Positions 5,315 through 55,506 of a stretch of 64,000 nucleotides of DNA are shown piece by piece. The first letter of the stretch is position 1, and every line of letters starts with the position of its first letter. Below the pieces are notes generated by a model that made no database searches, was not told where the DNA came from, and saw only the letters and a list, made by a program, of their open reading frames with translations. The DNA comes from an uncultured Gammaproteobacteria bacterium (lineage in GTDB: Bacteria; Patescibacteriota; Patescibacteriia; Magasanikbacterales; GWA2-37-8), in the NCBI GenBank assembly GCA_964355175.1, contig CAYHBZ010000002.1, positions 119,189-183,188 of the forward strand. Reading direction: 5' to 3'. A program made the translations under genes and the position numbers.

Positions 5315-5854
5315 ATGACTAAAATTTATACAAAAACCGGAGATAAAGGCGAAACCTCATTGCTGGGCGGTGTGCGCGTCAGTAAAGATTGTATTACCTT
5401 ACGAGTGGTCGGAGAAGTAGATGAGCTCAACTCGGTGCTTGGCCAAGTGGTTGCTCATTTATATGGTGAAGAACCAGCCGAATTTTTGGAAAAAATTCAG
5501 AGTGATTTGTTTAAAGTGGGAGCGGAGTTGGCATCTTTGCAGATGGTCATGAATTCAAAAATTTTAAAAGTAGAAGAGGAAGAAATAATAGAATTGGAAA
5601 AAACTATTGATGAATATACCGAGCAGTTGCCGGAATTAAAGAATTTTATTTTACCAGGCGGTATTATTGCCGGCGCTACACTGCACCACGCCCGCACTAT
5701 TTGTCGCAAAGCGGAGCGTGAGTTGGTTTCTTTGGGAAAAGAGCAGTCGGTGCGCGTTGAGCTGTATCAGTATTTCAATAGGTTGAGCGATTATTTATTT
5801 ACTGCGGCGCGATTTGTAAATGCCCAAAATGGCGTGGAAGAAACAATTGTTTAG
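5315..5854 (+). CDS. pduO: ATP:cob(I)alamin adenosyltransferase, PduO type
   Basis: N-terminal YTKTGDKGETSL motif and ~180 aa helical bundle typical of PduO/MMAB-type ATR. Confidence 0.85.
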   Translation: MTKIYTKTGDKGETSLLGGVRVSKDCITLRVVGEVDELNSVLGQVVAHLYGEEPAEFLEKIQSDLFKVGAELASLQMVMNSKILKVEEEEIIELEKTIDEYTEQLPELKNFILPGGIIAGATLHHARTICRKAERELVSLGKEQSVRVELYQYFNRLSDYLFTAARFVNAQNGVEETIV

Positions 5855-5868
5855 TAGAAATTATTCAC

Positions 5869-5903
5869 ACTTGACAGGGAGCATTTTAGCTTCTACAATG
5901 ACA
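5869..5903 (+). promoter_or_regulatory. sigma70-like promoter (TTGACA-17-TACAAT)
   Basis: TTGACAgggagcattttagcttcTACAAT lies ~170 nt upstream of tRNA-Leu. Confidence 0.35.
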
Positions 5904-6074
5904 ATACTTTTTTCTCTACAAAGCTGCGGTAGAACTGATGTATTAATCGGATCGGATTCTGAAAGCATTCTCTCTCTGGCTACTTTATGATTCGTTATCT
6001 AGTAGTCGCGTTTTCTAGATTTGATTCGCCAATTGAAACATGCAATTCTTCTCGCAGCTTTGTGGAGAAAATTT

Positions 6075-6155
6075 GCTCGGGTGGTGTAATGGTAGCCACA
6101 AGGGACTTAAAATCCCTCGCCGAAAGGCATGCGGGTTCGAGTCCCGCCCCGAGCA
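6075..6155 (+). tRNA. tRNA-Leu (anticodon TAA)
   Basis: Manual fold. Acceptor GCTCGGG/CCCGAGC, D-loop with GG, anticodon stem AGGGA/TCCCT with loop CTTAAAA, long variable arm CGCCGAAAGGCAT, and T-arm GCGGG-TTCGAGT-CCCGC. CCA is not encoded. Confidence 0.8.
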
Positions 6156-6162
6156 CAAGAGT

Positions 6163-6190
6163 AAAGTCACTTTAAAAAGTGACTTTTTTA
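6163..6190 (+). terminator. terminator hairpin after tRNA-Leu
   Basis: AAAGTCACTTT-AAAA-AGTGACTTTTTT. Confidence 0.5.
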
Positions 6191-6300
6191 TTTTAGGTTA
6201 AAGCCGCAGTAGCCACCATTATCAGCTATTTACAAATTTTTGAATTAGGAGTATACTTAAACAAGTATTTAATTAAACAAGTAATAAATTAATATAACTT

Positions 6301-6636
6301 ATGCTCAGTGAGAAAGAAATTCAAAAGAACCTCAAAATTCTCAATGATACCGATAAAAGTATGGCGGCGACATTTAAGGTGTTAAGCGATGTTAATCGTT
6401 ATCGAATTTTCCGTATCTTGGTAGAACAGCCAAGACTCTCTGTTAGTACTATTGCTCAGATTTTGAACATCTCTCTACCGCTAGCCTCACAGCATCTAAA
6501 AATTTTAGTACAGGCAAATCTTCTACAAAAGGTAAAAGATGGTAAAAAAGTTTTCCCTATAATTGAGCAAAGCAATCCTTTTGTTCCAGCCATTCTCAAG
6601 ACAATCAAACACGCGTATAAAATGCGAGTTAAATAA
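6301..6636 (+). CDS. ArsR/SmtB-family HTH transcriptional regulator
   Basis: Central winged-HTH RYRIFRIL..LSVSTIAQILNISLPLASQHLKIL typical of the ArsR family. Confidence 0.8.
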   Translation: MLSEKEIQKNLKILNDTDKSMAATFKVLSDVNRYRIFRILVEQPRLSVSTIAQILNISLPLASQHLKILVQANLLQKVKDGKKVFPIIEQSNPFVPAILKTIKHAYKMRVK

Positions 6637-6651
6637 AAATTAATAAAATAG

Positions 6652-7143
6652 ATGAAAAAAATAATTGTACCAGTAGTTATATCAGCGTTGGTAGTTTTTT
6701 TGATAGGTTATTTTCTATGGACAGCTGCTCCACGCCAAGTAGCAGTGCAAAATCCGGTCAAACAGCCATCGTCACAACCGATTCAAAATATTTATAAAAA
6801 TGAAACGCATAATTTTTCATTAATTTTTCCTCAAACATGGGATAATTATAATGTTGTTGAACAAACAAACGATGATTTTGATACTGTTTGCTTTAGTTTT
6901 AAACAGCCACAGCCGTTTTGTATATTTAGTATACTTAAATTAAACAACAATCAATGGGAACAAACAAAACTAAAACAAGAAAAAAATATTATATTAAAAA
7001 CTGAAACGTCTGTTTTTCTTTGTGATGGATGTTGCAAACAAAGTGATGATATGTCTGGCGGTGGTCAATTTAATGATTTTCATACCAAGAGATGTGGTGA
7101 GGCACCAGAGATTCTTGAAACATTTAAAATTATAAGTAGTTAG
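6652..7143 (+). CDS. hypothetical secreted/membrane-anchored protein
   Basis: N-terminal TM/signal segment and CxxC pair. No family recognised. Confidence 0.55.
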   Translation: MKKIIVPVVISALVVFLIGYFLWTAAPRQVAVQNPVKQPSSQPIQNIYKNETHNFSLIFPQTWDNYNVVEQTNDDFDTVCFSFKQPQPFCIFSILKLNNNQWEQTKLKQEKNIILKTETSVFLCDGCCKQSDDMSGGGQFNDFHTKRCGEAPEILETFKIISS

Positions 7144-7179
7144 TTGAGTAGCGCCGCATTTTATTTATTCTAAATTTAT

Positions 7180-8439
7180 ATGAAAAAAAATCTTATATTT
7201 GGCGTTATTGCAGTCGCTATCACTATTTTATTGGCTTATAGCATTCGGTTGGCTGTGCAAAAGAAAACAACTTCTCCGGCGCTAGCATCGCAGCAGTCAG
7301 CTCAGCCGATCGATTGTATTGATGAACCAGAAGGAAAACCGGTGATTACTTCGCTATCTGTTACTTCTAGCAAACAGGGGACAAACATAGAAATATTTGG
7401 TTGTAATTTTTCTGGATTTGAAGGAGATAAAAAAGCATGGATCGAAAATGAGAAAGGAATAAAAGGAATTTTCTTTGTTTATGATGGGTCAACTTCAAAG
7501 CATTTAAGAGTTACATTAGAAGAAAAACTTTGTCAGATTGATACGATGTATTCAGGCCTACCTTGTGATACTTGGCTTACCCTTGTTCCGGGAGTATATA
7601 AAATATTTGTGGATTCTTGGGGAAAAGCGAGTAATAAAATTGAATTTACCGTTGATCAATTAGTAAAAAAAAGCACTCCTATTACTTATTATATTCTCGA
7701 TAAAACAAATACTAATCAGACTTTTTGTAATGGAGCTGATATGGACAGCGTTGGTTTTAAGGCTGCTTTAACTAAAAAAATTGATATAAATGTTCCTGAT
7801 AATTTAACAACTGAAGAAAAAATTATCAAAACCCTCAGTTTGGCCGCCGCCGCGAATTCTTTTAATAAACCTTATACTCGTATTGAAGAAATTTCTTATA
7901 AAAATAATATTGTCTACATGGGGCCAAACGAAGGGTGGGCAGGTTCATCTATTTTTTATTGTGCTTGGAAGCCGTTTGTAGAAAAGAATTTGGAACAGTT
8001 TGTAGATGTAAAAGAAATTGTTTGGGATGCTTTTCCCGCGGTTTTACCCAAAAAAACAGTAAAAATATTTTTTAATAACACAAAATTTGATCCAGGTTTA
8101 ACAGATTGCTCTAAAGTATATTCGGTGAATCGTTTTATCGAGCCTACTTCGGCAGTAGCGCGCGCGGCCCTAGAAGAATTGTTCAAAGGGCCGACAGCTA
8201 ATGAAAAAAAAGTTGGTTACCTTAGTAATTTAAATAGTGGGGTAAAAATTCAAAAACTAACCATTGAAAATGGGATTGCCAAAGTGGATTTTTCCGCGGA
8301 ATTAGAAAAAAATGTAGGAGGATCTTGTCGGGTTGCGGCTATAGTTGCTCAAATTAAGGAAACTTTAAAACAATTTCCCACTGTTCAAGATGTTGTAATT
8401 TCAATCGACGGTCGCATTGAAGATATTTTACAACCGTAA
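7180..8439 (+). CDS. membrane-anchored protein with C-terminal GerMN-like domain
   Basis: N-terminal TM. C-terminal ~100 aa (AALEELFKGPT..GYLSNL..IAKVDFSAE..GGSCRVAAIVAQIKETLKQFPTVQDVVISIDG) matches the GerMN/Gmad2 pattern. Confidence 0.65.
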   Translation: MKKNLIFGVIAVAITILLAYSIRLAVQKKTTSPALASQQSAQPIDCIDEPEGKPVITSLSVTSSKQGTNIEIFGCNFSGFEGDKKAWIENEKGIKGIFFVYDGSTSKHLRVTLEEKLCQIDTMYSGLPCDTWLTLVPGVYKIFVDSWGKASNKIEFTVDQLVKKSTPITYYILDKTNTNQTFCNGADMDSVGFKAALTKKIDINVPDNLTTEEKIIKTLSLAAAANSFNKPYTRIEEISYKNNIVYMGPNEGWAGSSIFYCAWKPFVEKNLEQFVDVKEIVWDAFPAVLPKKTVKIFFNNTKFDPGLTDCSKVYSVNRFIEPTSAVARAALEELFKGPTANEKKVGYLSNLNSGVKIQKLTIENGIAKVDFSAELEKNVGGSCRVAAIVAQIKETLKQFPTVQDVVISIDGRIEDILQP

Positions 8440-8454
8440 TAAAAATAAAAAAGT

Positions 8455-9081
8455 ATGAATATCTTTAAAACCTTGAAAATTTTTGGTGTTATATTAGTAT
8501 TGATAATTTTATCCGGTGGAGCATCTTTCGTGTTTTCAAGTGATTTAAAAGATGATAGTGAGAGCTGTGTGCCTGTATTATATGCAGAACAAGATGCGGG
8601 AGGGAACAGCGCTTATTTGGCAAACGGTGTTGTGTCTTTGAATATTGGTCAATTTTTGGATGACACTTTGGGCTCAGGAAAAAAAAGGAAAAAGGTATCT
8701 CAATTTCAGCTAAATGGGCCTTGGAATAGTTGTGATATTTTAAAGGAAGTAACTGTGCATCATCTTGGGACAGGCGCTATTTCCGATATTGATAAAATAT
8801 ATATTACGGATGAGTCAATGAATATTCTCACTCCAATTCAAAATTTTTACGGTAATAGATCGGTCAAGCTGGTTCTAAAATCTCCGTATGTTATTGCGAA
8901 AAATTCATACAATAATTTTTTTGTTGTTATAAATACGGCAACGCAGTCGTCCACAGGCACACATCAGATCGCTATTTATCCTGACAATAATGGAGCGAGT
9001 GATTTTGTCCTTAGTTCAGTAGGACATATAGTGGCTGGAGCAGAAAATGTTATTTCCACTTCGTTTACCATCATTCCTTAA
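8455..9081 (+). CDS. hypothetical secreted protein
   Basis: N-terminal TM/signal. No family recognised. Confidence 0.55.
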   Translation: MNIFKTLKIFGVILVLIILSGGASFVFSSDLKDDSESCVPVLYAEQDAGGNSAYLANGVVSLNIGQFLDDTLGSGKKRKKVSQFQLNGPWNSCDILKEVTVHHLGTGAISDIDKIYITDESMNILTPIQNFYGNRSVKLVLKSPYVIAKNSYNNFFVVINTATQSSTGTHQIAIYPDNNGASDFVLSSVGHIVAGAENVISTSFTIIP

Positions 9082-9095
9082 AATATTAAGTATCT

Positions 9096-9893
9096 ATGAA
9101 AAAATTATTTTTTGCGTTTGTTGGATTAATTATTTTAACAGGAGCAGGTTGTAATAAGCAAGATTATCAAATACCACAAACCATATCTTCCACTAGTACT
9201 TATTTGTACAGCGATGATTACAATTCGCTTCAAGTAGACGTCAATGGTGACGGTAAGGAAGAGTTAATTACGCTTACAGTGAAACGTTTCGAAGGCTATG
9301 TGACTACCACTCTATATGTGAATGATCTCTCTGTAATTGTGCCTGGGTATGATCCAGCTGGATATTTTGGTATGGTAGATATTGATAGTCAAGATAATAT
9401 AAGAGAGATTGCGGTCATTGATGTTGGACCAAGCGATGATTATACAACCAATTTTTATTACTTCAACGGCACAAATTTATTGTTTATGGGTACTATTCCA
9501 TGGGTATATAAAGATATGACTTTTGATGGATTTGGCAAAATAATTACAAAAACTCGTGGTAAAATTTTGGATACATGGTTTTATGATGATGATTTCGTTA
9601 TTTCCAAAAATCACGAGCTTGTTCATGTGCCAAAAAATCTTTATGTCAGAGATACTACAGTAACGCTTTTAACTGCGCTGCCTCTACAGATATCTCCTTT
9701 AAATTCTAAAATAATTACCAATTTGAACAAAGGCGAGATCGCAAAAATTATTGGCTGTGATGATATAGCTTGGTGTGTTATAGAAAAATCCGATGGCGTT
9801 CACGGTTGGTTTGCAGTAGAAAATTTTGATATTGTGAAAGGTGTTGGGCTGCACGCCGGGGATGTTTTTTTGGGATTGTCTAATGCGGATTAG
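9096..9893 (+). CDS. putative lipoprotein (lipobox LTGAGC), possible C-terminal SH3b-like domain
   Basis: Signal peptide plus Cys. C-terminal IAKIIGCDDIAWCVIEKSDGVHGWF resembles SH3b. Confidence 0.55.
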   Translation: MKKLFFAFVGLIILTGAGCNKQDYQIPQTISSTSTYLYSDDYNSLQVDVNGDGKEELITLTVKRFEGYVTTTLYVNDLSVIVPGYDPAGYFGMVDIDSQDNIREIAVIDVGPSDDYTTNFYYFNGTNLLFMGTIPWVYKDMTFDGFGKIITKTRGKILDTWFYDDDFVISKNHELVHVPKNLYVRDTTVTLLTALPLQISPLNSKIITNLNKGEIAKIIGCDDIAWCVIEKSDGVHGWFAVENFDIVKGVGLHAGDVFLGLSNAD

Positions 9894-9948
9894 ATTATTG
9901 TGCTATCGTTTTTTTATTTTTTATCTAAAATTTTATAAAAAATGGATT

Positions 9949-9977
9949 GACAAAAGGCGTTTTTTGTGCTATAATAA
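9949..9977 (+). promoter_or_regulatory. consensus sigma70 promoter TTGACA-17-TATAAT (with TGc extended -10)
   Basis: TTGACAaaaggcgttttttgtgcTATAAT lies ~50 nt upstream of the ATG at 10029. Confidence 0.5.
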
Positions 9978-10028
9978 GTACATATTTGGCTAAATTAAGC
10001 TAAATTTATATTTTTAAACTATAAATAT

Positions 10029-10995
10029 ATGGTAGAAGGCAAAGGTGGAAGTTTATTTAAAAAATTAGTTTTAGGTGTTAGCTCACTAGCCGCATTAGGG
10101 GGGGGCACATGAAGTTGGTAAAAGTGCTGGCCACGACAGTGGCTACGAAGCTGGTGAAAAAGCTGGTAAAGCTGCCGGAACCGAGGAAGGTAAAAAAGTT
10201 GGTCTTAAACAAGGTGAAGAAACCGGTAAAAAAACTGGTTTTGCAGAAGGTAAGATAAAAGGAACGGAAGAAGGGAAAACAGCCGCACACGAAGAATTAG
10301 CCAGAGCCGCTGATCCAAAAACTGAACAAGAAAAGAAAGAACAAGAGGCTAAGGAGTCACGGAAGTTTCAAGAAGATCAAGAAAAAACAAAAAAAGGATT
10401 AGATTCTTTGCAGATTAATAAAGGTGAAGAGAAAAATTTTAAAGCTTCAAAAGAAGCGGCCGAAGTTTCCGGAAAAGCATTTGAATTGAAGGTAAAAGAA
10501 GATTTGGGCAGCTATCCAAGTTGGTTGCGGGTTGGAAATAGTCATGAAATTGATAATTCTGCTGATGTAATCATCTCAATGACGCAGACTGAATCGGGTC
10601 TGAAGTTAGTTAGAGAAAAAGTGAGGGCGGATAAAGATTTTAAAGTAGTGTTTGAAAAATTATTTGAAAGACTTTCTAATTTAAGAGATAAAATTAGCCA
10701 AGATGGAAATAACCTAGAAGATGGAGAGGTTTTATATATAGAGGATAAAGATTCGTGGATGAATCTTGACTCAGAAGAAGACGAAAAAGGCCATGTGACC
10801 TATTCGGAAACAATTCAAAATTACAACGAAGCAACAGGAGAAACAAAAGAAGAAGTTAAAGTTATTACTGAAAAAGAAAATGATCGAAGATGGAAAATCT
10901 ATAATAAGGAAAAAGATAATGAGGTGAAAAGGAAACAGGAAAAAGTAAATATTTTAGCTAAAGTTTTAGCCGAGAATGTTGTAGAGGTAAAATAA
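10029..10995 (+). CDS. K/E/G-rich low-complexity repeat protein with N-terminal signal/TM; reading frame interrupted at a G8 homopolymer (10098-10105)
   Basis: ATG at 10029 encodes MVEGKGGSLFKKLVLGVSSLAALGGG and then hits TGA at 10110. A long stop-free frame (10099..10995; ..EAGEKAGKAAGTEEGKKVGLKQGEETGKK..) becomes contiguous if the G tract has 7 rather than 8 G. The ORF-track call 10408..10995 is the TTG-initiated tail of this frame. Confidence 0.5.
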
Positions 10996-11104
10996 CTAAT
11001 AAAAAAGAGCGGTCAGGGCCGTTCTTTTTGTATTTGTCATGGGATTGTTTTTTTGGTAAGATTGTACACAGTTGTATTAGTTTATTTTTATTGTCATAAT
11101 TTTT

Positions 11105-11974
11105 ATGTCAGCAGATAAATACACTGCCGTGTGGGTATCCCACACCTCCATCTCAGATTTTCTAAAATGTCCTCGCGCTTATTTTTTGAAGAATGTTTAT
11201 CGCGATCCATCTACGCGTCACAAAATAAAATTAATGACGCCGGCTTTGGCGCTGGGACAAGCAGTGCATGAGGTGTTGGAATCTCTTTCTCAATTACAAC
11301 GCGGCGCTCGCTTCAATGAGCCGTTGCCGGTAAAATTTGACCGTGCTTGGGAAAAAGTAAAAGGTGAAAAAGGTGGATTTCCCAACGATGAAGTAGAATA
11401 CAAATATAAAAAACGCGGCTTGGATATGCTCGCGCGCGTCTATAATCATCCGGGGCCAATAAATAATTTGTCCGTAAAAATTCAGATGGATCTGCCGTAC
11501 TATTGGCTGTCTGAAGAAGAAAATATTATTTTGTGTGGCAAAGTAGATTGGCTCGAATATCTGCCGGACACCGACAGTGTTCACATTATTGATTTTAAAA
11601 CCGGTAAAATTCAGGAAGAAGAAAGTTCGTTGCAGCTCCCAATTTATAGTTTGCTTGTTTCCAATTGTCAGAAAAGAAAAACTACCAAAGCTAGTTATTG
11701 GTATTTAGGTGACAGCGACGCTCTCACCGAAAAAACTTTACCTGATGTGTCGGATGCGGAAAAGAAAATTCTTGATATTGCCAGACAGATAAAAGTGGCG
11801 CGCCAAATTAACAGATTTAAATGTCCACAAGACGCGGACGGATGTTTTGCTTGTCGCCCGTTTGAAGCTATTTTAAAACGAGAAGCCAAATTGGTGGGTC
11901 AGGATGAATATGGCGCGGATATTTACATCATCGATAAAACGGAAGCAGAAAATCGTGAAGGTGAAATTTTATAA
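11105..11974 (+). CDS. PD-(D/E)XK nuclease superfamily protein, Cas4/RecB-like with 4-Cys cluster
   Basis: Core HIIDFKTGK (D..E/D-x-K). N-terminal Cys in LKCPRAYF plus C-terminal CPQDADGCFACRP is the Cas4/AddB-type Fe-S Cys arrangement. Confidence 0.7.
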   Translation: MSADKYTAVWVSHTSISDFLKCPRAYFLKNVYRDPSTRHKIKLMTPALALGQAVHEVLESLSQLQRGARFNEPLPVKFDRAWEKVKGEKGGFPNDEVEYKYKKRGLDMLARVYNHPGPINNLSVKIQMDLPYYWLSEEENIILCGKVDWLEYLPDTDSVHIIDFKTGKIQEEESSLQLPIYSLLVSNCQKRKTTKASYWYLGDSDALTEKTLPDVSDAEKKILDIARQIKVARQINRFKCPQDADGCFACRPFEAILKREAKLVGQDEYGADIYIIDKTEAENREGEIL

Positions 11975-11975
11975 T

Positions 11976-12407
11976 ATGAATTTTTTAGGATATATTTTCG
12001 CGATTGGCGCGGCCGTTGCTTGGGGGATGGTATATACGCTAGATCAAAAAATAATGGACAAAGTTTCTCCGCTCAGTCTACTATTTTTTTCTTATGTTGT
12101 CTCGACCTTAATAGTTTTGCCGTTGATGTTTTTGGAAAAAGGGTCGTTTCAGTCAATCATTACTTCGGGAAAGAATAATTTAGGTTTATTGTTTATTTCT
12201 ACTTTTCTCACAATCTTGGCCAGTTTTTTGATTTTAAGCAGTGTTAAGATTTTGCATGCTCCGACCGCTTCGGTGCTGGAGATCTCATATCCGCTATTTG
12301 TCACCCTTTTTGCCTTTTTACTATATAATGAGGTTATCACCTGGCAGTTTGTGCTAGGGGCAGTATTGGTTTTTTCCGGGACGGCTATTATTATCCGCTT
12401 TCATTAG
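11976..12407 (+). CDS. EamA/DMT-superfamily half-size membrane transporter
   Basis: Four to five TM helices with an EamA-like pattern. Start placed at the ATG immediately after the upstream stop, in the same frame as track ORF 11904..12407. Confidence 0.55.
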   Translation: MNFLGYIFAIGAAVAWGMVYTLDQKIMDKVSPLSLLFFSYVVSTLIVLPLMFLEKGSFQSIITSGKNNLGLLFISTFLTILASFLILSSVKILHAPTASVLEISYPLFVTLFAFLLYNEVITWQFVLGAVLVFSGTAIIIRFH

Positions 12408-12807
12408 CTCTATATTTAAACAAAAATGTGGATAACTTTGCGCTAAAATCAGCATAAAATTGTACTTTTTGGCTAATATAAGGCAAAAGACGGTAAAATG
12501 CTTGACAAAATCTAGTCACCTCGCTCCATTTGACAAATCTTTCTTTTTATTGTACTATTTAGAAACTTTCAAAAGCGTGGATCGCACCCAAGAAAAGCGC
12601 TAAGATAAGCAAAAAAGTGGCGTTTATTTGACAAAATAAACTACTACTTGCAAGGAAAATCAATAAAACATTTTTCATGTCAACCTTGCGTTTTTTCGCT
12701 AAAATATAACAAAAAAGCTCAAAGGACCTGTTATTTTGGTACTTTTTTTGTTTGCATTTTTCAAAAATTATTTATTTTTTTAACATTTTTTAAATAAATT
12801 TCCTTTT

Positions 12808-15800
12808 ATGCCTATATTCAAGCGCCAAGCTCTCAAGGAAAAGGATAGAAAGTTTTTTACAAAAGTAAAAAACGCTATTCCGCTTCCTAACTTGATTGAG
12901 ATCCAAACGGACTCTTACAATTGGTTTACCAAAATTGGTATCAAAGAATTGTTTGAAGAAGTTTCTCCAATCACTGATTTCTCCGGACGTAATTTGGAAT
13001 TGTATTTAGAAGATTATTATTTGGACGAACCGCGCTTCGATGAAGTGACTTGTAAGAAACGAAATGTTTCTTATGAAGCTCCTTTGCGTATTACTGCTCG
13101 TCTTTTGAATAAAAATACCAAACAGAGTAAATCTCAAGAAATTTATTTGGGTGATATCCCAATGATGACACAGCGCGGTACTTTCATTGTGAATGGTATC
13201 GAACGCGTAATTGTATCTCAGCTTATCCGCTCTGCCGGTGCATTCTTTACTGCGGAAAATGTTCGTGGTCGCCGCTACTACGGTGCCAAAATTATTCCAA
13301 ATCGCGGTGCATGGCTTGAAATTGAAACTGACCAGAATAACGCACTGTGGGTAAAAGTAGATCGCAAACGTAAAGTCGCCGTAACATCTTTGTTGCGTGC
13401 TTTTGGCGTTGAAAGTGATGAAGAAATTATTGCCGCTTTCAAAAAAGTAAATACTCATCCAACTATTGATTTCATCGACGCCACTTTGAAAAAAGATTTA
13501 GCCAAGAATATGGATGAAGGTTTAATAGAAGTTTACAAACGTATTCGTCCGGGTGATTTGGCTACTCCAGATAATGCCAAAGGTTTAATCCACGCCATGT
13601 TCTTTAATTTTGAACGCTATGATTTGGGACGCGTGGGTGTTTACAAATTCAACAACAAGTTTGATGTGGAGTCCAAACCGGAAGATTATGACAACAAAGA
13701 AAATCGCGTGTTGTCTTCCGAAAAATTAATCGCGGTAATTTCCGAAATTATTCGCCTCAATGTGACTCAAGAAGAACCGGATGATGTAGATCATTTGGGT
13801 AATCGTCGTATCCGCGCTGTGGGTGAATTGGTACAGAATAGATTCCGCGTGGGTCTGGCTCGTATGGAACGTATCGTGAAAGATCGTATGAGTACCTATG
13901 ATGTAGAACAGCTCGTACCAAACAAAGTAATCAATGCTCGTCCGGTAATGAGTGCCATTCGTGAATTCTTTATGAGTTCTCAGATGTCTCAGTTCATGGA
14001 TCAACACAACCCATTATCTGAACTCGAACACAAACGCCGTTTGTCCGCACTTGGACCTGGTGGTTTGTCTCGTGATCGCGCCAGTTTTGAAGTGCGTGAT
14101 GTGCATACTACTCACTACGGTCGTATTTGTCCGATTGCTACACCGGAAGGACCGAATATCGGTTTGGTAAACCACCTTTCCAGTTTTGCTCGTATCAATG
14201 AATTTGGTTTTATTGAAACTGCTTATAAGAAAATTTTGCGTGAAGTAAAAAATGACGCCTCTCTCACTGAGGGTGAAATTTTACGTGGCGATGTTGGTGG
14301 CTTTAAAGATGGTACCGCTATCACCAAAGAAGTCGCTGTTAAATTGGCCAAAGAAAAATTAGCTTCTATCACCGTTAAATCCCGCGTGACTAATGAAGTA
14401 GTTTATTTGAGCGCTTTTAAAGAAGAAAAATATCTCACTGCTTCTGCTCGTACTCGCGTGGATGAAAAGGGTTACTTCCTCGATGAACGCGTACCAGCTC
14501 GTGTAAATGCCAAACCAGGTAATGCTCGCACTGAAGATTTGGATTTCATCGATGTTGGTAGTGCTCAGATTGTAAGTATTGCTACCTCCTGTATTCCATT
14601 CCTCGAACACGATGATGCTACCCGCGCTTTGATGGGTACAAACATGCAGAGACAAGCCGTACCATGTATTCGTCCAGAGGCTCCTTTGGTCGGTACCGGT
14701 GTGGAACACGAAGCCGCTAAATATTCCGGCCAGGTTGTGATTGCTCCGGAAGATGGCGAGATCGTAGAATGTGATGGTGGTCATATCGTACTCAAAGGTA
14801 AAAAAGATACTTATACTTATCAATTAAATAAATTCGTTCGCGCCAACGCCGCCACTTGTATCAACCAACATCCGACAGTGGTGGTTGGTGAGAAAATAAA
14901 AAAGGGTCAGATCATCAGTAATGGCCCAAGTATTGCCGACGGTGAGTTGGCACTTGGCCAGAACATGTTGGTCGCCTATATGGCTTGGGATGGTTTCAAC
15001 TATGAAGATGCCGTGATTCTTTCCGAGCGCGTAGTGCACAAAGATCGCTACACTTCTATTCATATTGAAGACTATACTATTGATGTTCGTGAAACTAAAC
15101 TTGGACCGGAAGTAGTGACTTCTGATATCCCAAATGTTTCTGAAGAAAAATTAAAGAATCTAGATTCCGAAGGTATTGTCCGTGTTGGTGCCGAAGTAAA
15201 ATCCGGTGATATTTTGGTGGGTAAAATTACTCCAAAAGGTGAAACTGAATTATCCGCGGAAGAAAGATTGTTGCGCGCCATCTTTGGTGAAAAAGCTCGT
15301 GATGTTCGTGATTCTTCTATGTATCTTGAACACGGTGAACACGGTAAAGTAATTGGCATCCAAGTATTTTCCGAAGAAGCCGGTGATAAACTCGAACCAG
15401 GTGTTATCAAAGAGGTACAGGTTAAAGTGGCTGATATGCGTAAAATTCAGGTGGGTGATAAAATGGCCGGTCGCCATGGTAACAAAGGTGTTATTTCCAA
15501 AGTTGTACCTTCTGAAGATATGCCGTTCCTTGAAGATGGTACTCCTATTGATATTATTCTTTCCCCACTTGGTGTTATCTCCCGTATGAACTTGGGTCAG
15601 TTGCTTGAAACTCATTTGGGTTTAGCGGCCAATGCTTTGGGATATAAAGTAGCTACTCCAGTGCTTGATGGTTTGACCGAAGATCAAATTTACGCTGAAT
15701 TGAAAAAAGCCGGTTTGCCAGTTTCTGGTCAGGCTCAGCTTTATGATGGTCGTACCGGTGAACCATTTGATTACCACACTACTATTGGTTACAACTACAT

Positions 15801-38468: not shown

Positions 38469-38497
38469 TTGACAAAATAGCTCAAAAGGTATATAAT
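38469..38497 (+). promoter_or_regulatory. perfect consensus sigma70 promoter TTGACA-17-TATAAT for rpsA
   Basis: TTGACAaaatagctcaaaaggtaTATAAT. The leader contains hairpin TCCTGA-CTAAGA-TCAGGA. Confidence 0.6.
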
Positions 38498-51056: not shown

Positions 51057-52943
51057 TTAATTATTTAGAGGAATCTCATCTCCGGTGAGTTCCAGTTGTT
51101 TGCCGGTGACGCTGTCTTGGGCTTGGATGTGCACTTTGGAAACCAGGATATTTTGAGTAGGATTTTTCTTATTGATAACTACTGAGAATGGCAGGGCTAA
51201 GACATCGCTATTTTCGGTAAGCTCAGGGATATCCCATACCAGATGTTTGGAGTTTTGGTCAAAGGACAGGGTGCCGGCTGGAGTAGACGAAGCGCTCATA
51301 AAGGTGATGTCGCCAAACAAATCAGCAGTTACTTTGATATTTTTGAGAGTGTGAAAAGTGTTGGAAAGAATCCAGGTAATATCGTGATTTTCGCGTTCTT
51401 TACTGTCGGAGCTGATCTCATTTTTTTGTTTAAATTTTAAATCTGAATTCAAAGTAATTATAATGGCGTTGCCAGAAATTGTCTGGGTAGCGCCCGTTTT
51501 ATCAGTATAGGTCAAGTTCGTGTTTACAGTAACTTGGTAGGTATCAACACTCGACCAAGGAGCGGTATCACTGTTTTTTATCGGAAGTTGGAACTCAATA
51601 TTAGTTTGTCCGGAAGGCTTTATTAGATTTAGATCTTTGTCTTTACTGCTATCCCACGCCAAAGCAGCACGACGAATGGAATCTGAAATTTGTGAGCCAG
51701 TAATATCACCATCATGTTTGTCGGCAATGTCGGACCAAGCTAAAACACTTTGTTTTTTGTAAGATGGAGAGTCTACTACCAATTGAACCTTTGCTTTACT
51801 GATATCATCTTTGCCGGCATTTTTCACGGCGATAGTAAAGTTTAAAATTTCACCTGGCTTGGAATCAAAATCGGTCAAAGAACCGTTGATAGCGGTATTA
51901 ATAATTACCGAATTCTTAATCAGTTCCGTCCTTAGGGTGGATTCAGCCAAAAGGTAGCTGGTTTGAGCTTGTTGGTCCGCCAACGAAACTTGCACCTTTA
52001 GATCCGAAGCATCAGCCGAAGCGTCATTGAATTGTCCACTGAAAGAGATTACGTATTGGTTGGCCAAAGTAGAAGTAGCGGCTTTTATATTCCAAACATT
52101 TTTCTCCAGCGGCAAGCTCGAGCTAGCCATTACAAAGCTGGGAGGGAAAATAGGAGACACTATCAAGTTTTTGTTGGCTAAATTGTCTTTGCTTTTGATA
52201 GTAATGGTATAGGTCGAAGGACTGCCTACCGCCACTTTGTCGAGACCGGCAATGGCCACCGATATTGGGGCTTGGTTTGGTTTGATATCCAAGGTGGCTA
52301 CTTTTTGCATCTCGGAATTGAAATTTTCTGGAGTGAAGTTGAGTAACGCGCGCCAGGAAATAGCGGTGCCGACCGATCCGAAAGAATTACCGGTAATTTG
52401 CAAAGTTTTTTCTTCGTGTGGTTTTAATGTGCCGAGATCCCATGCATTTTTTCCAATATTTTTTGGTTCCAGTGAGCTTTGTAGGAAAGAGAATCCTGTA
52501 GGATAGTTTAGGGTTAAGGTGACTTTGTTTAAATTTACACCCTGATTATTTTTGAAGCGTATGCTATAGGTAGTGGTGGCCCCTACGACAAAATTTTGCG
52601 GTCCTTCAATCGCCAAATCCACCTGTGAGTCATCGAATTGTCCACCATTTGGTAGGAATAAGAAGCCGGTCCAGGCCATGGCGGCTAATAAGGCAACGGT
52701 GAAAAAGAATTTGAACATGCCAGCGATAAAAGATCCACTTGAAGTGCGTTTGATCTCGCGCATGTTTGGCAAGCGACCGCTGTCATCTTCGTAAATATCT
52801 TTTAATTGGCGACCGATTTTTTCGCTAGTTTGATCCTCGGCGGATTCTTCTGCCACTACTTTGCGAACGCGGCGTGGTTTTTTTGGAGCAGTTGATTCGT
52901 TTGAAAAAAATTTTTCTTCGGACATAAATTTATTTATTTTCAA
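51057..52943 (-). CDS. hypothetical membrane-anchored protein with large beta-rich extracytoplasmic region (628 aa)
   Basis: N-terminal basic region, one TM, then repetitive beta-strand-like segments. Overlaps the upstream gene by 14 nt, suggesting an operon. Confidence 0.6.
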   Translation of the reverse strand: MKINKFMSEEKFFSNESTAPKKPRRVRKVVAEESAEDQTSEKIGRQLKDIYEDDSGRLPNMREIKRTSSGSFIAGMFKFFFTVALLAAMAWTGFLFLPNGGQFDDSQVDLAIEGPQNFVVGATTTYSIRFKNNQGVNLNKVTLTLNYPTGFSFLQSSLEPKNIGKNAWDLGTLKPHEEKTLQITGNSFGSVGTAISWRALLNFTPENFNSEMQKVATLDIKPNQAPISVAIAGLDKVAVGSPSTYTITIKSKDNLANKNLIVSPIFPPSFVMASSSLPLEKNVWNIKAATSTLANQYVISFSGQFNDASADASDLKVQVSLADQQAQTSYLLAESTLRTELIKNSVIINTAINGSLTDFDSKPGEILNFTIAVKNAGKDDISKAKVQLVVDSPSYKKQSVLAWSDIADKHDGDITGSQISDSIRRAALAWDSSKDKDLNLIKPSGQTNIEFQLPIKNSDTAPWSSVDTYQVTVNTNLTYTDKTGATQTISGNAIIITLNSDLKFKQKNEISSDSKERENHDITWILSNTFHTLKNIKVTADLFGDITFMSASSTPAGTLSFDQNSKHLVWDIPELTENSDVLALPFSVVINKKNPTQNILVSKVHIQAQDSVTGKQLELTGDEIPLNN

Positions 52944-55506
52944 TAATTAATCCCCAAGTATGATCGGCGTTCAAATTAAAATTGGCGATACTGGCTCCGT
53001 TTTTGGCTAATTCTATATTATCGCCTTGTTGATGCGATGCTTGGTAGTTGGTTGGTAAAATTATTTGACTTTCAAAAGCGCTGTCGATGCCGGATTGTCT
53101 TTGGACTATCAGTTGATACGGACTCATTTTTTTCACCGCTAGGAATTTTTGCCATAGATCTTGACTAGCACTATTCATTGTTTCGATTCTAAAAGGCAGG
53201 CGATAAGTAAATTGGATTTGGCTGGTTTGGCCGGGAGTGGTGACGATCCAATTGCCAAAAGCCGTTTTATCAAATTCTTCTGTTATCCGTGTGCCGGTGC
53301 GTTCGTCTATTTTTATTTCTTTTTCGGTTTGATTTAACAGATCATCGTCCTTATAATAATTTTCCGGCACATGAAAATCAGATTCATCCGGCCAGGTAAA
53401 TCCGTTGGCAGAAATAAGCTCACTGCCACGCGGCACATAGACACGGATATAATCAATATTAGGAGCGCCATACATTTCTTCCTGTGATTCGCCGCCGTGG
53501 GTGCGGGTAATTATTACCGTATCGGATATAGAGCCGTCACTGTCGACAATCACTTGGTGACTGATGGATTGTTTTATTCTAGCGTCACTTTTTTGACCAT
53601 GGATATTGGTATTGAATACGGCCAGATAATCTTGGTTGGAATTGGTAGGTAAAATTTTTCCAGCCCAACCCATTTGTTGTGTGGCGTTTTGAGCGGTTTG
53701 GTCGATAAAGTATGCTTGGATTTCTTTTTTGGAAAGAGCATCTTGCAAATTTGTCAACAATGGAATCAAATTTTTTGGTTCGCTATTTTTGAAGTGTTCG
53801 ATAAATTGTGGAGCCAGATCAGAAAGAATTTGTTTTGGTTTGTGTAATTTTTTTTCTGGACCCGATTCTACGACTTTTTGAATAGTTGGCAAGGCATTAT
53901 TAGCGGAAATAATTAGACCGCGTTTGCTGTCGCTGATCGGCCCGGTAATTGCCAGCAGTCTTTCGAGTACGCTGGCGTTGATAGCAATCACGCCATCGGC
54001 CGTAATATTGCGACTGTGACGATAAAACCATAATATTTTTTGAGCGGAAACGGAAAAATCCGGAAACCAATTGGCATCTTGGAATTCCCAGCGTTTGTTG
54101 GTTAGCAAAAGTGGAGTTGGTGGAATTATATATTGATCTAGCTGTCCTTGTAGATCATAGGTGCCGCCGGCTGGGACTTCTAGGTTTAAAATTTTTCCAT
54201 CTTTGATATCTAATATCGCAAAACTTCCCATAAAACCTCCGGTCGGACGCAACTCCGCTGGATTTTGGAAGACCAATAAATAACGGCGCTGACCCTGAGC
54301 GCCAAAAATTTCTTTGAGCGATCCGCCCAAATCAGAAAGGCTCTGTAGGTCGGCCAATACTGCTCCGAAAATATTTTGGAAATCTTTGAATGGCCCTTGA
54401 TAAGCCAGTGGCAAGGCCTGGTCATCCACGCCATCTAAATCATCCATGGCCGCTTGATAATTTGGGATAGCGGCATGTAGGTGTTCCATCAGAATATTCA
54501 TTCTATTCTCCAGAGTGCTGGTAGCATCAGTCTGACTCTCTGTGATTCCTTTGAGCAGATAGGTGTTGCCCAAAGCGATTTTTTGTCCAGCCAATAATAA
54601 ATTTTGACGACTCTTTACTTCATTTTCCATTACTGGAATAACCGAAACTATTTTTTGCAGAACTTCATGTTTGGTTTGCATTGTCTCGACAGCATTGCCA
54701 AAACTATTGAGCGCCTCATTGATAGCGATTTGCGCTGTTGGCAAATCAGAATGCATCAAAGCGGCAGTGGAATTTTGCAGGGACATAAAACCGTTGGTGC
54801 TGTCGGAAACGATTTTATTTTTGGTGAGCTGAATATCTTGGTAGTAGCTATTGGCTTTGCCCGGCACTATCAAAATAATAGCGAGCACTACTAAGGCCAC
54901 TGTTATTTTTTGTAAAATTAAATTGCTCTTTGCCCAACCGCCAAAATCTTTGGTCGCGTCTTCGATATGCTGGGCGGTTTTTGTTTCCCAATTATTCCAA
55001 TTCTGTTTGAGGATGTTTAATTTATTTGGTCGTGAAATTTTTACTACCGGAGTAGGATTTTTTTGGACCGGAATTTGAGAATTTAAAGGTCTAAATAATT
55101 TTTCAGTTGTAAATTTGTTGAAAATTGGAGTTTCATCGGCGGCTTGCTCGCGAGTGGGTTCAGTCGTGATCGGATAGATGATTTTGTGTTCACGCACTTC
55201 TTTTATTTTTTTATAAGCATCTTCAAAATCGGATCGATGCGACTGTGGACCCACAGTTTGGACTTGGTCCAGAGCCGTATCAGGTTGTTTTTTGAGATTA
55301 ACAACATGAGGTGAGTGAGTAGGGGTGTTGGTGACATGGTGAACAAAAAATTTGATGTGTGAAAAATTTGGCTGGCTATTTTTGGGCACAACTAAAGAGG
55401 CCTGGTAGATTTCGCAGGTGGATTTATTGTGGCCGCTTTTGTCGCAGAAGGCACAGCGGCGTAGTTGTGGCCTTTTTTTAGAGAAAAATTTTTTAATTTT
55501 GGACAT
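52930..55506 (-). CDS. hypothetical membrane protein (858 aa) with N-terminal CCHC zinc-knuckle-like motif
   Basis: CAFCDKSGHNKSTC (C-x2-C-x4-H-x4-C) near the N-terminus, one TM and a large extracytoplasmic domain. Confidence 0.6.
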   Translation of the reverse strand: MSKIKKFFSKKRPQLRRCAFCDKSGHNKSTCEIYQASLVVPKNSQPNFSHIKFFVHHVTNTPTHSPHVVNLKKQPDTALDQVQTVGPQSHRSDFEDAYKKIKEVREHKIIYPITTEPTREQAADETPIFNKFTTEKLFRPLNSQIPVQKNPTPVVKISRPNKLNILKQNWNNWETKTAQHIEDATKDFGGWAKSNLILQKITVALVVLAIILIVPGKANSYYQDIQLTKNKIVSDSTNGFMSLQNSTAALMHSDLPTAQIAINEALNSFGNAVETMQTKHEVLQKIVSVIPVMENEVKSRQNLLLAGQKIALGNTYLLKGITESQTDATSTLENRMNILMEHLHAAIPNYQAAMDDLDGVDDQALPLAYQGPFKDFQNIFGAVLADLQSLSDLGGSLKEIFGAQGQRRYLLVFQNPAELRPTGGFMGSFAILDIKDGKILNLEVPAGGTYDLQGQLDQYIIPPTPLLLTNKRWEFQDANWFPDFSVSAQKILWFYRHSRNITADGVIAINASVLERLLAITGPISDSKRGLIISANNALPTIQKVVESGPEKKLHKPKQILSDLAPQFIEHFKNSEPKNLIPLLTNLQDALSKKEIQAYFIDQTAQNATQQMGWAGKILPTNSNQDYLAVFNTNIHGQKSDARIKQSISHQVIVDSDGSISDTVIITRTHGGESQEEMYGAPNIDYIRVYVPRGSELISANGFTWPDESDFHVPENYYKDDDLLNQTEKEIKIDERTGTRITEEFDKTAFGNWIVTTPGQTSQIQFTYRLPFRIETMNSASQDLWQKFLAVKKMSPYQLIVQRQSGIDSAFESQIILPTNYQASHQQGDNIELAKNGASIANFNLNADHTWGLIIENK

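Follow-up and report, generated by a model that had tools for sequence, protein, structure and literature searches.

A poly-G tract near the 5' end of an orphan gene from a Magasanikbacteria lineage as a candidate phase-variable switch caught in its OFF state

Phase variation mediated by simple sequence repeats (SSR) is textbook biology of host-adapted pathogens, and SSR contingency loci switch reversibly at about 1e-5 to 1e-2 per division. The biology of the Candidate Phyla Radiation (CPR, Patescibacteria), including host attachment and phage exposure, is known almost only from genomes. The best described poly-G contingency genes are those of Campylobacter jejuni, Neisseria (hmbR, hpuA) and Helicobacter, in which a G/C homopolymer lies in the 5' part of the open reading frame (ORF) and gains or losses of a single base switch the gene cleanly ON or OFF (PMC8355987, PMC3786947, PMC5084427). 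In Campylobacter and Neisseria, poly-G tracts of G7 and G8 length are well established as switches (PMC8355987, PMC3786947). In the searchable literature, no report of repeat-mediated phase variation in the CPR was found. Here, we describe a gene with a G8 tract in a 64-kb stretch of DNA from a Magasanikbacteria lineage of the CPR (the whole analysed stretch is called the window, and coordinates are window positions), and we propose that this gene is probably a slipped-strand contingency, i.e., phase-variable, locus caught in the OFF state.

The locus shares further features with the poly-G contingency genes of pathogens: the tract is kept against codon preference, the target is accessory and fast-evolving and may be surface-related, and the length of the allele differs between otherwise identical genomes. 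It differs from them in that it belongs to an uncultivated environmental CPR bacterium and not to a host-adapted pathogen, in that its tract is G7 or G8 whereas those of C. jejuni are mostly G9-G10, and in that there is only one tract in the 64 kb, for which switching is proposed from sequence comparison. The position of the tract is reminiscent of the Neisseria Opa genes, for which background cited as ref. 51 in PMC11032452 places a repeat within the signal-peptide coding segment, downstream of a constitutive promoter. With a repeat placed in this way, the translation frame alone decides whether the mature protein is made. However, the Opa repeat is a CTCTT pentanucleotide and not a homopolymer, and the Opa proteins are beta-barrel outer-membrane adhesins unrelated to the 321-aa protein described here. 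Similarly, inlA of Listeria monocytogenes is a surface-protein gene with a homopolymer in its first codons and a very short truncated product; its frameshifts have several independent origins, and reversion occurs at ~1000x the point-mutation frequency (PMC2831843). The inlA homopolymer, however, is poly(A) and not poly(G), and the virulence function of the gene is known. The only comparable CPR case in the searched literature is the hypervariable PTD-repeat gene of Gracilibacteria (BD1-5), likewise a repeat gene with extreme local variation for which slipped-strand mispairing has been discussed (PMC6851277), but its in-frame 9-mer array varies the protein sequence and is not a frame-shifting ON/OFF homopolymer.

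The locus is a single monocistronic gene that extends from its own promoter via an ATG at 10029 and a stop at 10995 to an intrinsic terminator (Table 1). The original prediction, which was made from the letters of the window, had described a perfect promoter, this ATG, a run of eight G, a TGA at 10110 and a long frame running to 10995. All of these elements are present in the sequence, although the promoter lies at 9947-9975 and not at 9949-9977. The TG dinucleotide in its spacer makes it an extended -10 promoter, and a pattern scan found no second 12/12 match within positions 9000-12900. The promoter is kept almost base for base in the orthologous loci L001, L002, L003, L020 and L034, and the entire stretch from promoter to ATG is nearly identical in the window and L001 despite a synonymous divergence (dS) of ~1 in the coding sequence. 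No Shine-Dalgarno sequence is evident in the leader (9976-10028), which may be a protein-binding or translation-enhancer element.

Table 1. Coordinates of the candidate contingency gene, its control elements and the left border of the surrounding island (window positions)
Feature	Position	Strand	Remarks
tRNA-Leu(taa)	6075..6156	+	left border of variable island
Promoter-gene-terminator cassette	9900..11030	+	entire cassette, present/absent between close lineages
Promoter, sigma-70 type	9947..9975	+	perfect 12/12, TG-extended; TTGACA 9947-9952, 17-nt spacer, TG 9967-9968, TATAAT 9970-9975
Leader (5' untranslated region)	9976..10028	+	A/T-rich, conserved; tandem GCTAAATTAA/GCTAAATTTA at ~9990-10009
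Gene segment 1	10029..10104	+	ATG frame, codons 1-25 of 321; same N-terminal sequence as P0006
Poly-G tract	10098..10105	+	G8 (OFF); G7 = in frame (ON); codons 24-26 of 321
Gene segment 2	10105..10995	+	+1 frame, residues 26-321; stop TAA 10993-10995
Premature TGA	10110..10112	+	reached in the G8 state after 27 codons
GxxxG-repeat segment	10117..10275	+	residues 30-82; 14 glycines at exact spacing 4
Predicted folded C-terminal region	10315..10977	+	residues 96-316; predicted structure
Intrinsic terminator	11002..11029	+	12-pair stem, then T run

The tract is made up of the Gly-Gly codons 24-25 and the first base of the next codon. With G8, the ATG frame is a short ORF of 27 aa (MVEGKGGSLFKKLVLGVSSLAALGGGT), while the +1 frame stays open from 10099 up to 10995 and contains no ATG, GTG or TTG before 10408. 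The products computed for the different tract lengths are a single 321-aa ORF for G7, 76 aa for G9 and 322 aa for G10. Accordingly, a change of one unit in a mutable G tract of at least 7 nt switches the reading of this ORF, which is in frame at G7 and stops at codon 28 at G8. That removal of one G would fuse the two frames had been part of the original prediction, and the 321-aa product computed in this way is a protein on record, P0006, which matches the G7 fusion residue for residue. In a tblastn comparison, residues 24-321 of P0006 and window positions 10099-10992 were 100% identical. No paralogue of the gene was found elsewhere in the 64-kb window.

At the G8 locus, gene callers reported only a 195-aa protein (P0001) starting at the TTG at 10408. 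A search with the G7-fusion protein returned this tail, P0002 (321 aa, full coverage, 59% identity) and few others, and P0006 sits in the 90%-identity cluster of P0001. As P0006 exists and the orthologues read through G7, the "gene" at 10408 is only the tail of the longer one, just as had been proposed. The prediction that G9 would yield a Lys-rich peptide fared less well: no record of such a product was found, and where the window has the ATG at 10109, L001 and L002 have ACG. The third frame does hold a 49-aa Lys-rich ORF (MKLVKVLATT..., 10109-10258), whose ATG lies 3 nt past the G tract, but this ORF is most likely a by-product of the codon composition of the GxxxG repeat.

To compare alleles of the same strain, tract lengths were taken from consensus contigs. 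The contig of the window itself is NODE_6 of ENA ERZ4201063 (463,850 bp, coverage 12.1), which carries G8; this assembly and those of the G7 samples ERZ4201064 and ERZ4201065 form one SPAdes series. P0006 is encoded on NODE_2 of ERZ4201064, in the Logan assembly of ERR3856788 and in ERZ4201065. NODE_2 (L008; 953,736 bp, coverage 10.5) aligned with window positions 29-20995 over 20,967 nt with 0 mismatches and 1 gap, the ERR3856788 contig (L009) over 14,539 nt with 0 mismatches and 1 gap, and the ERZ4201065 contig (L010) over 3,228 nt with 1 mismatch and 1 gap. In all three the lone gap is the G tract, which is G7. A further 12.7 kb from ERR3856788 (L031) showed 0 differences from the window. 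Over 33.7 kb in total, the G7 sample and the window thus differ by 0 substitutions, and the G tract is the sole difference. The G8 allele was found again in another run, SRR24858484, whose Logan contig (L007) matched the window at 100% identity over 6,588 nt with 0 mismatches and 0 gaps. The length of the tract therefore differs between otherwise identical genomes, with G7 in L008, L009 and L010 and G8 in the window and L007.

Since homopolymers are classic sites of indel errors, a strain that is truly G7 could have been miscalled as G8 during sequencing or assembly. The coverage of the window contig, which is only ~12x, and the fact that every intact orthologue encodes the G7 product would be in line with such an artefact. 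However, two assemblers concur within each dataset, SPAdes (ERZ4201063) and Logan (SRR24858484) giving G8 and SPAdes (ERZ4201064, ERZ4201065) and Logan (ERR3856788) giving G7, so that the difference lies between samples and not between programs. Both lengths come from the same project and pipeline, and the frameshift that produces the 195-aa call is carried on four contigs. Moreover, none of the 50 other homopolymers of at least 7 nt (7 of which are at least 8 nt long) changed in length over the 33.7 kb, which makes a generally homopolymer-error-prone platform unlikely. Taken together, we regard a miscall as quite improbable.

The original prediction had called a G8 tract striking in this genome. 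Judged by base composition alone, this does not hold, and a G run of at least 7 is unsurprising: dinucleotide-preserving shuffles contained a mean of 3.8 G7 matches, with at least 2 in 83 of 100 shuffles. The real sequence, in contrast, is depleted of G/C runs (observed vs expected, 9 vs 22.8 for G5, 0 vs 5.2 for G6 and 0 vs 1.2 for G7), and the G8 tract is the sole G or C run longer than 5 in 64 kb. GGG is the rarest glycine codon, accounting for 6.1% of Gly codons, and the GGGGGG dicodon was found in none of the 73 Gly-Gly dicodons of 38 long ORFs. No other notable simple repeat was found in the 64-kb window.

We then compared the tract across lineages. Intact relatives pass ...SSLAALGGAHEVGK... 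through G7 in frame, and the junction in P0002 and P0005 is exactly this G7 reading. L001 and L002 both carry G7 in frame at the same site, which in L001 reads Leu-Gly-Gly-Ala. In L020 the tract is G8 and nevertheless in frame (TTG GGG GGG GCA), because the Leu codon is TTG. L003 has no tract at this site (GGT GGG TTT GGG GCA) but carries a G9 at codons 8-10 that puts the gene out of frame; with G8 instead of G9 the reading becomes MAGERSSGGGFLKGLRENPTVRRIVAGVGLAVGGFGAGHETGK... and the full-length protein is restored, its N-terminus resembling that of distant relatives such as P0027 (...SWLKGKLAKGVALLGLIGGAEQAG). In the distant relative L035 the site reads GGC GGT, without a tract. Compared with L001, the window has a dS of 0.46 over codons 1-50 and of about 1 overall. 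Among the window, L001, L002 and L020, synonymous sites on either side of the tract vary, but the tract itself is retained. The GGG-GGG pair is thus found in four lineages at a dS of 0.5-1, and a separate G9 is found in L003, which indicates that the tract is maintained by selection. The occurrence of G7 and G8 across samples, the reproduced G8, the conservation in rare codons and the second tract of L003 together favor a real and hypermutable tract, where the original prediction had left a phase-variable switch and a homopolymer error side by side.

Elsewhere the gene has been damaged or lost. L034 carries an interrupted tract (GGGGGT) in a pseudogene with an internal deletion and an A-run frameshift; its copy, at 187-713 of that locus, is called as P0033 and P0034, the repeat/coil region is deleted, and the A run is one base short of the in-frame length. 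Loci from three samples (L004-L006) share a 178-nt deletion corresponding to window 9975-10152. Lost with it are the final base of the -10 element, the leader, the start codon and 41 codons, the tract among them. The whole cassette (~9900-11030) is cleanly absent from L033, where window position 9899 is joined to 11031 with ~4 nt of overlap, and the gene is absent from L024-L029. A search of species-representative genomes and JGI metagenomes with protein patterns from the family alignment found no relatives, and a DNA-pattern search with the promoter found one true orthologue (L020) plus many unrelated loci that have the promoter alone. A C8 homopolymer was observed in L002 (955-962), in the intergenic region between the orthologue of the target gene and the nuclease gene.

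The dN/dS ratio (nonsynonymous to synonymous) of the target gene is 0.21-0.35, compared with 0.02-0.07 in the neighboring nuclease gene. By this measure the gene appears to be fast-evolving yet under constraint, and the ratio implies that it is maintained where it is present. These values bear on the possibility of ordinary decay, according to which G8 would be an isolated inactivating indel in a gene that is accessory and dispensable, and the tract would be mutable simply as a homopolymer. The independent and irreversible lesions described above (the deletion in L004-L006, the deletion and A-run frameshift in L034, the absence from L033 and L024-L029) would fit decay, as would the two tract lengths and the tiny size of the family, which comprises 6 clusters at 90% identity in a set of 5.8 billion proteins and 14 representatives at 50% identity in an exhaustive search, none of them annotated. 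Decay does not explain why the tract was kept in the rarest Gly codons in four lineages at a dS of about 0.5-1, why a second tract arose independently elsewhere in L003, or why the gene is constrained where present. Furthermore, the OFF allele bears no further lesion and is 100% identical to the ON allele bar one G, while the decaying copy of L034 has an interrupted tract, as expected once selection for mutability lapses. We therefore consider ordinary decay unlikely, if somewhat less remote a prospect than a miscall.

The frame break could also be bridged during expression, the G8 allele being decoded into the full-length protein by +1 ribosomal frameshifting on GGG-GGG-G or by slippage of RNA polymerase. 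A G8 tract would permit perfect +1 re-pairing of tRNA-Gly, and both out-of-frame alleles, the G8 of the window and the G9 of L003, are one G above the in-frame length. However, the frame break is not conserved, since the reading is uninterrupted in the sister samples of this strain and in three orthologous lineages, and the shift site has neither a slow nor a stop codon. The leader and tract region gave no Rfam match and its RNA fold was not significant (z = 0.04), so that neither a riboswitch nor a stimulator of frameshifting was found there. Known cases of transcriptional slippage in bacteria involve long A/T runs, which also speaks against recoding of a G tract. With an unconserved break and no stimulatory signal, recoding is disfavored, and we regard it as very unlikely indeed. 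A programmed frameshift gene of the prfB or dnaX kind was rejected for like reasons: the orthologues and the sister strain are in frame, and there is no RNA structure.

The N-terminus of the 321-aa protein consists of a basic n-region and a hydrophobic stretch of 13-14 residues (LVLGVSSLAAL, then GG) ending in LGGA|HE, with a mean Kyte-Doolittle hydropathy of 1.6 over 15 residues, and the motif ...GGA(H/E/Y)(E/Q)(V/A)G recurs in all distant relatives. This segment resembles a Sec signal peptide, or else a short membrane anchor. The glycine repeat that follows (residues 30-82) has a predicted local distance difference test (pLDDT) score of <50. In an AlphaFold2 model, residues 1-95 are of low confidence, while residues 96-316 are predicted with high confidence as a helical domain made up of a bundle of helices, a sheet of three strands and two long helices, one of them terminal. 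The original description of the product as K/E/G-rich and of low complexity thus applies to about residues 26-125 and not to residues 96-316, for which a folded domain is predicted.

Searches of Pfam, NCBIfam and PHROGs yielded sub-threshold matches to the repeat segment only. The matches to Yae1_N and FliH arise because the glycines of this segment are spaced at exactly 4; FliH/YscL and Yae1 likewise have a long glycine run at spacing 4 amid charged residues. An identity as FliH/YscL was rejected, as the NCBIfam scores of 24.3 and 22.2 bits compare with cut-offs of 180-192 and cover residues 34-109 only, and so was Yae1_N (PF09811), with 15 bits against a gathering score of 27.5. In both cases the match covers the repeat only, the C-terminal domain is unrelated and the target protein differs in having a signal-like N-terminus; for FliH/YscL, moreover, there is no flagellar or type III secretion context at the locus. 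No structural relatives were found either: a sequence search of the PDB gave no significant match, all Foldseek hits against the PDB had E > 0.5, and BFVD gave none.

Based on these results, we propose that the poly-G tract would act as a slipped-strand on/off switch, with G7 being ON and G8 being OFF after 27 codons. As the promoter is strong and looks constitutive, expression would be set mainly by the length of the tract, and a population would consequently hold or generate both expressing and non-expressing cells. The OFF state would be a clean null, because the tract lies at the 5' end and inside the signal-like segment. Such a mixture would suit a protein that is secreted or displayed on the surface and on which selection fluctuates, as it might through phage or in the recognition of a host or partner. 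The gene appears to behave like a target of fluctuating selection, judging from its place in a variable island next to a tRNA gene, its dN/dS, the deletion, the pseudogene and the absences. Slippage as the cause, reversibility, the switching rate, mixtures within a sample, export and the selective agent are parts of the proposal that we infer.

Several points weigh against the proposed switch. Mixed tract lengths and reversibility are deduced from consensus contigs whose coverage is modest (about 12x, 10.5x and 3x), and SRR24858484 may not be a physically independent sample. Just two tract lengths are seen in the window strain; a protein search with the 76-aa G9-frame product gave no match, and neither a G9 nor a G6 product is on record, so that there is no evidence for a third allele. 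G7/G8 is the short end of the tract lengths that switch fast. The window contains one such tract, so that no genome-wide contingency strategy is visible, and as several lineages lose the gene irreversibly, G8 could be one more loss. Export, finally, is suggested by hydropathy and a conserved motif only. Even so, we favor the phase-variable reading for this locus.

The mechanism itself is well known, and what would be new is its setting in an environmental CPR bacterium, in an orphan protein family and with a switch that is visible across metagenome samples. If true, repeat-mediated phase variation would be documented here for the first time in the CPR, in a form that can be followed directly in an environmental metagenome series. 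The broader proposition, on which we consider the evidence evenly balanced, is that ultra-small, uncultivated CPR bacteria use classical poly-G contingency loci, that this Magasanikbacteria lineage kept hypermutable tracts over substantial divergence in the signal-peptide region of a strongly transcribed, fast-evolving gene and re-invented one at a second site, and that its populations toggle the secreted product, plausibly in a phage arms race or in host recognition. If verified, the switch would mark the orphan family as a likely interface molecule worth study, would mean that frameshifted "pseudogenes" in CPR metagenome-assembled genomes (MAGs) can be regulated states and not errors, and would turn the G7/G8 ratio into a simple read-level marker for the population dynamics of an uncultivated bacterium. 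If G8 were an error or plain decay, the locus would be of annotation interest only.

On the right, the variable island that contains the gene is bordered by the conserved PD-(D/E)XK nuclease gene (11105), whose close relatives carry names that place the organism in the Candidatus Magasanikbacteria. Lineages differ in the genes of this island. The window version encodes a MarR/ArsR-like regulator, one Germane-domain protein and two proteins that resemble signal-peptide proteins or lipoproteins. The island of L004 carries an HNH endonuclease gene and that of L024 two other genes, and that of L026 is empty. The 28-29-nt promoter TTGACAAAAGGYGTTTTTTGTGCTATAAT occurs verbatim at L011-L019 and L021-L023, before unrelated genes in MAGs of other Magasanikbacteria and Patescibacteria and also in one MAG each of Ruminiclostridium (with a tRNA-like sequence downstream) and Tissierellaceae. 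An inverted repeat, ACAAAA...TTTTGT, lies in the spacer of this promoter. The recurrence could reflect a mobile promoter module or an "ideal" promoter that these genomes share. A second perfect TTGACA-17-TATAAT promoter lies in the window at 38469-38497, upstream of a gene for an S1-domain protein at ~38580.

Further along the window, adjacent genes on the minus strand (51057-55506) encode a DUF4012 protein of 858 aa and a DUF11-repeat protein of 628 aa, which are probably cell-surface proteins. An identity of these two ORFs as MutS and MutL was considered and rejected in favor of the DUF4012 and DUF11 assignments. In L024 (GCA_040384245.1), the rpoB region at 5686-8870 is split into a 477-aa call and a call running off the locus, whereas the other lineages have one 1146-aa gene; the split may stem from a frameshift or an insertion, or from the assembly.

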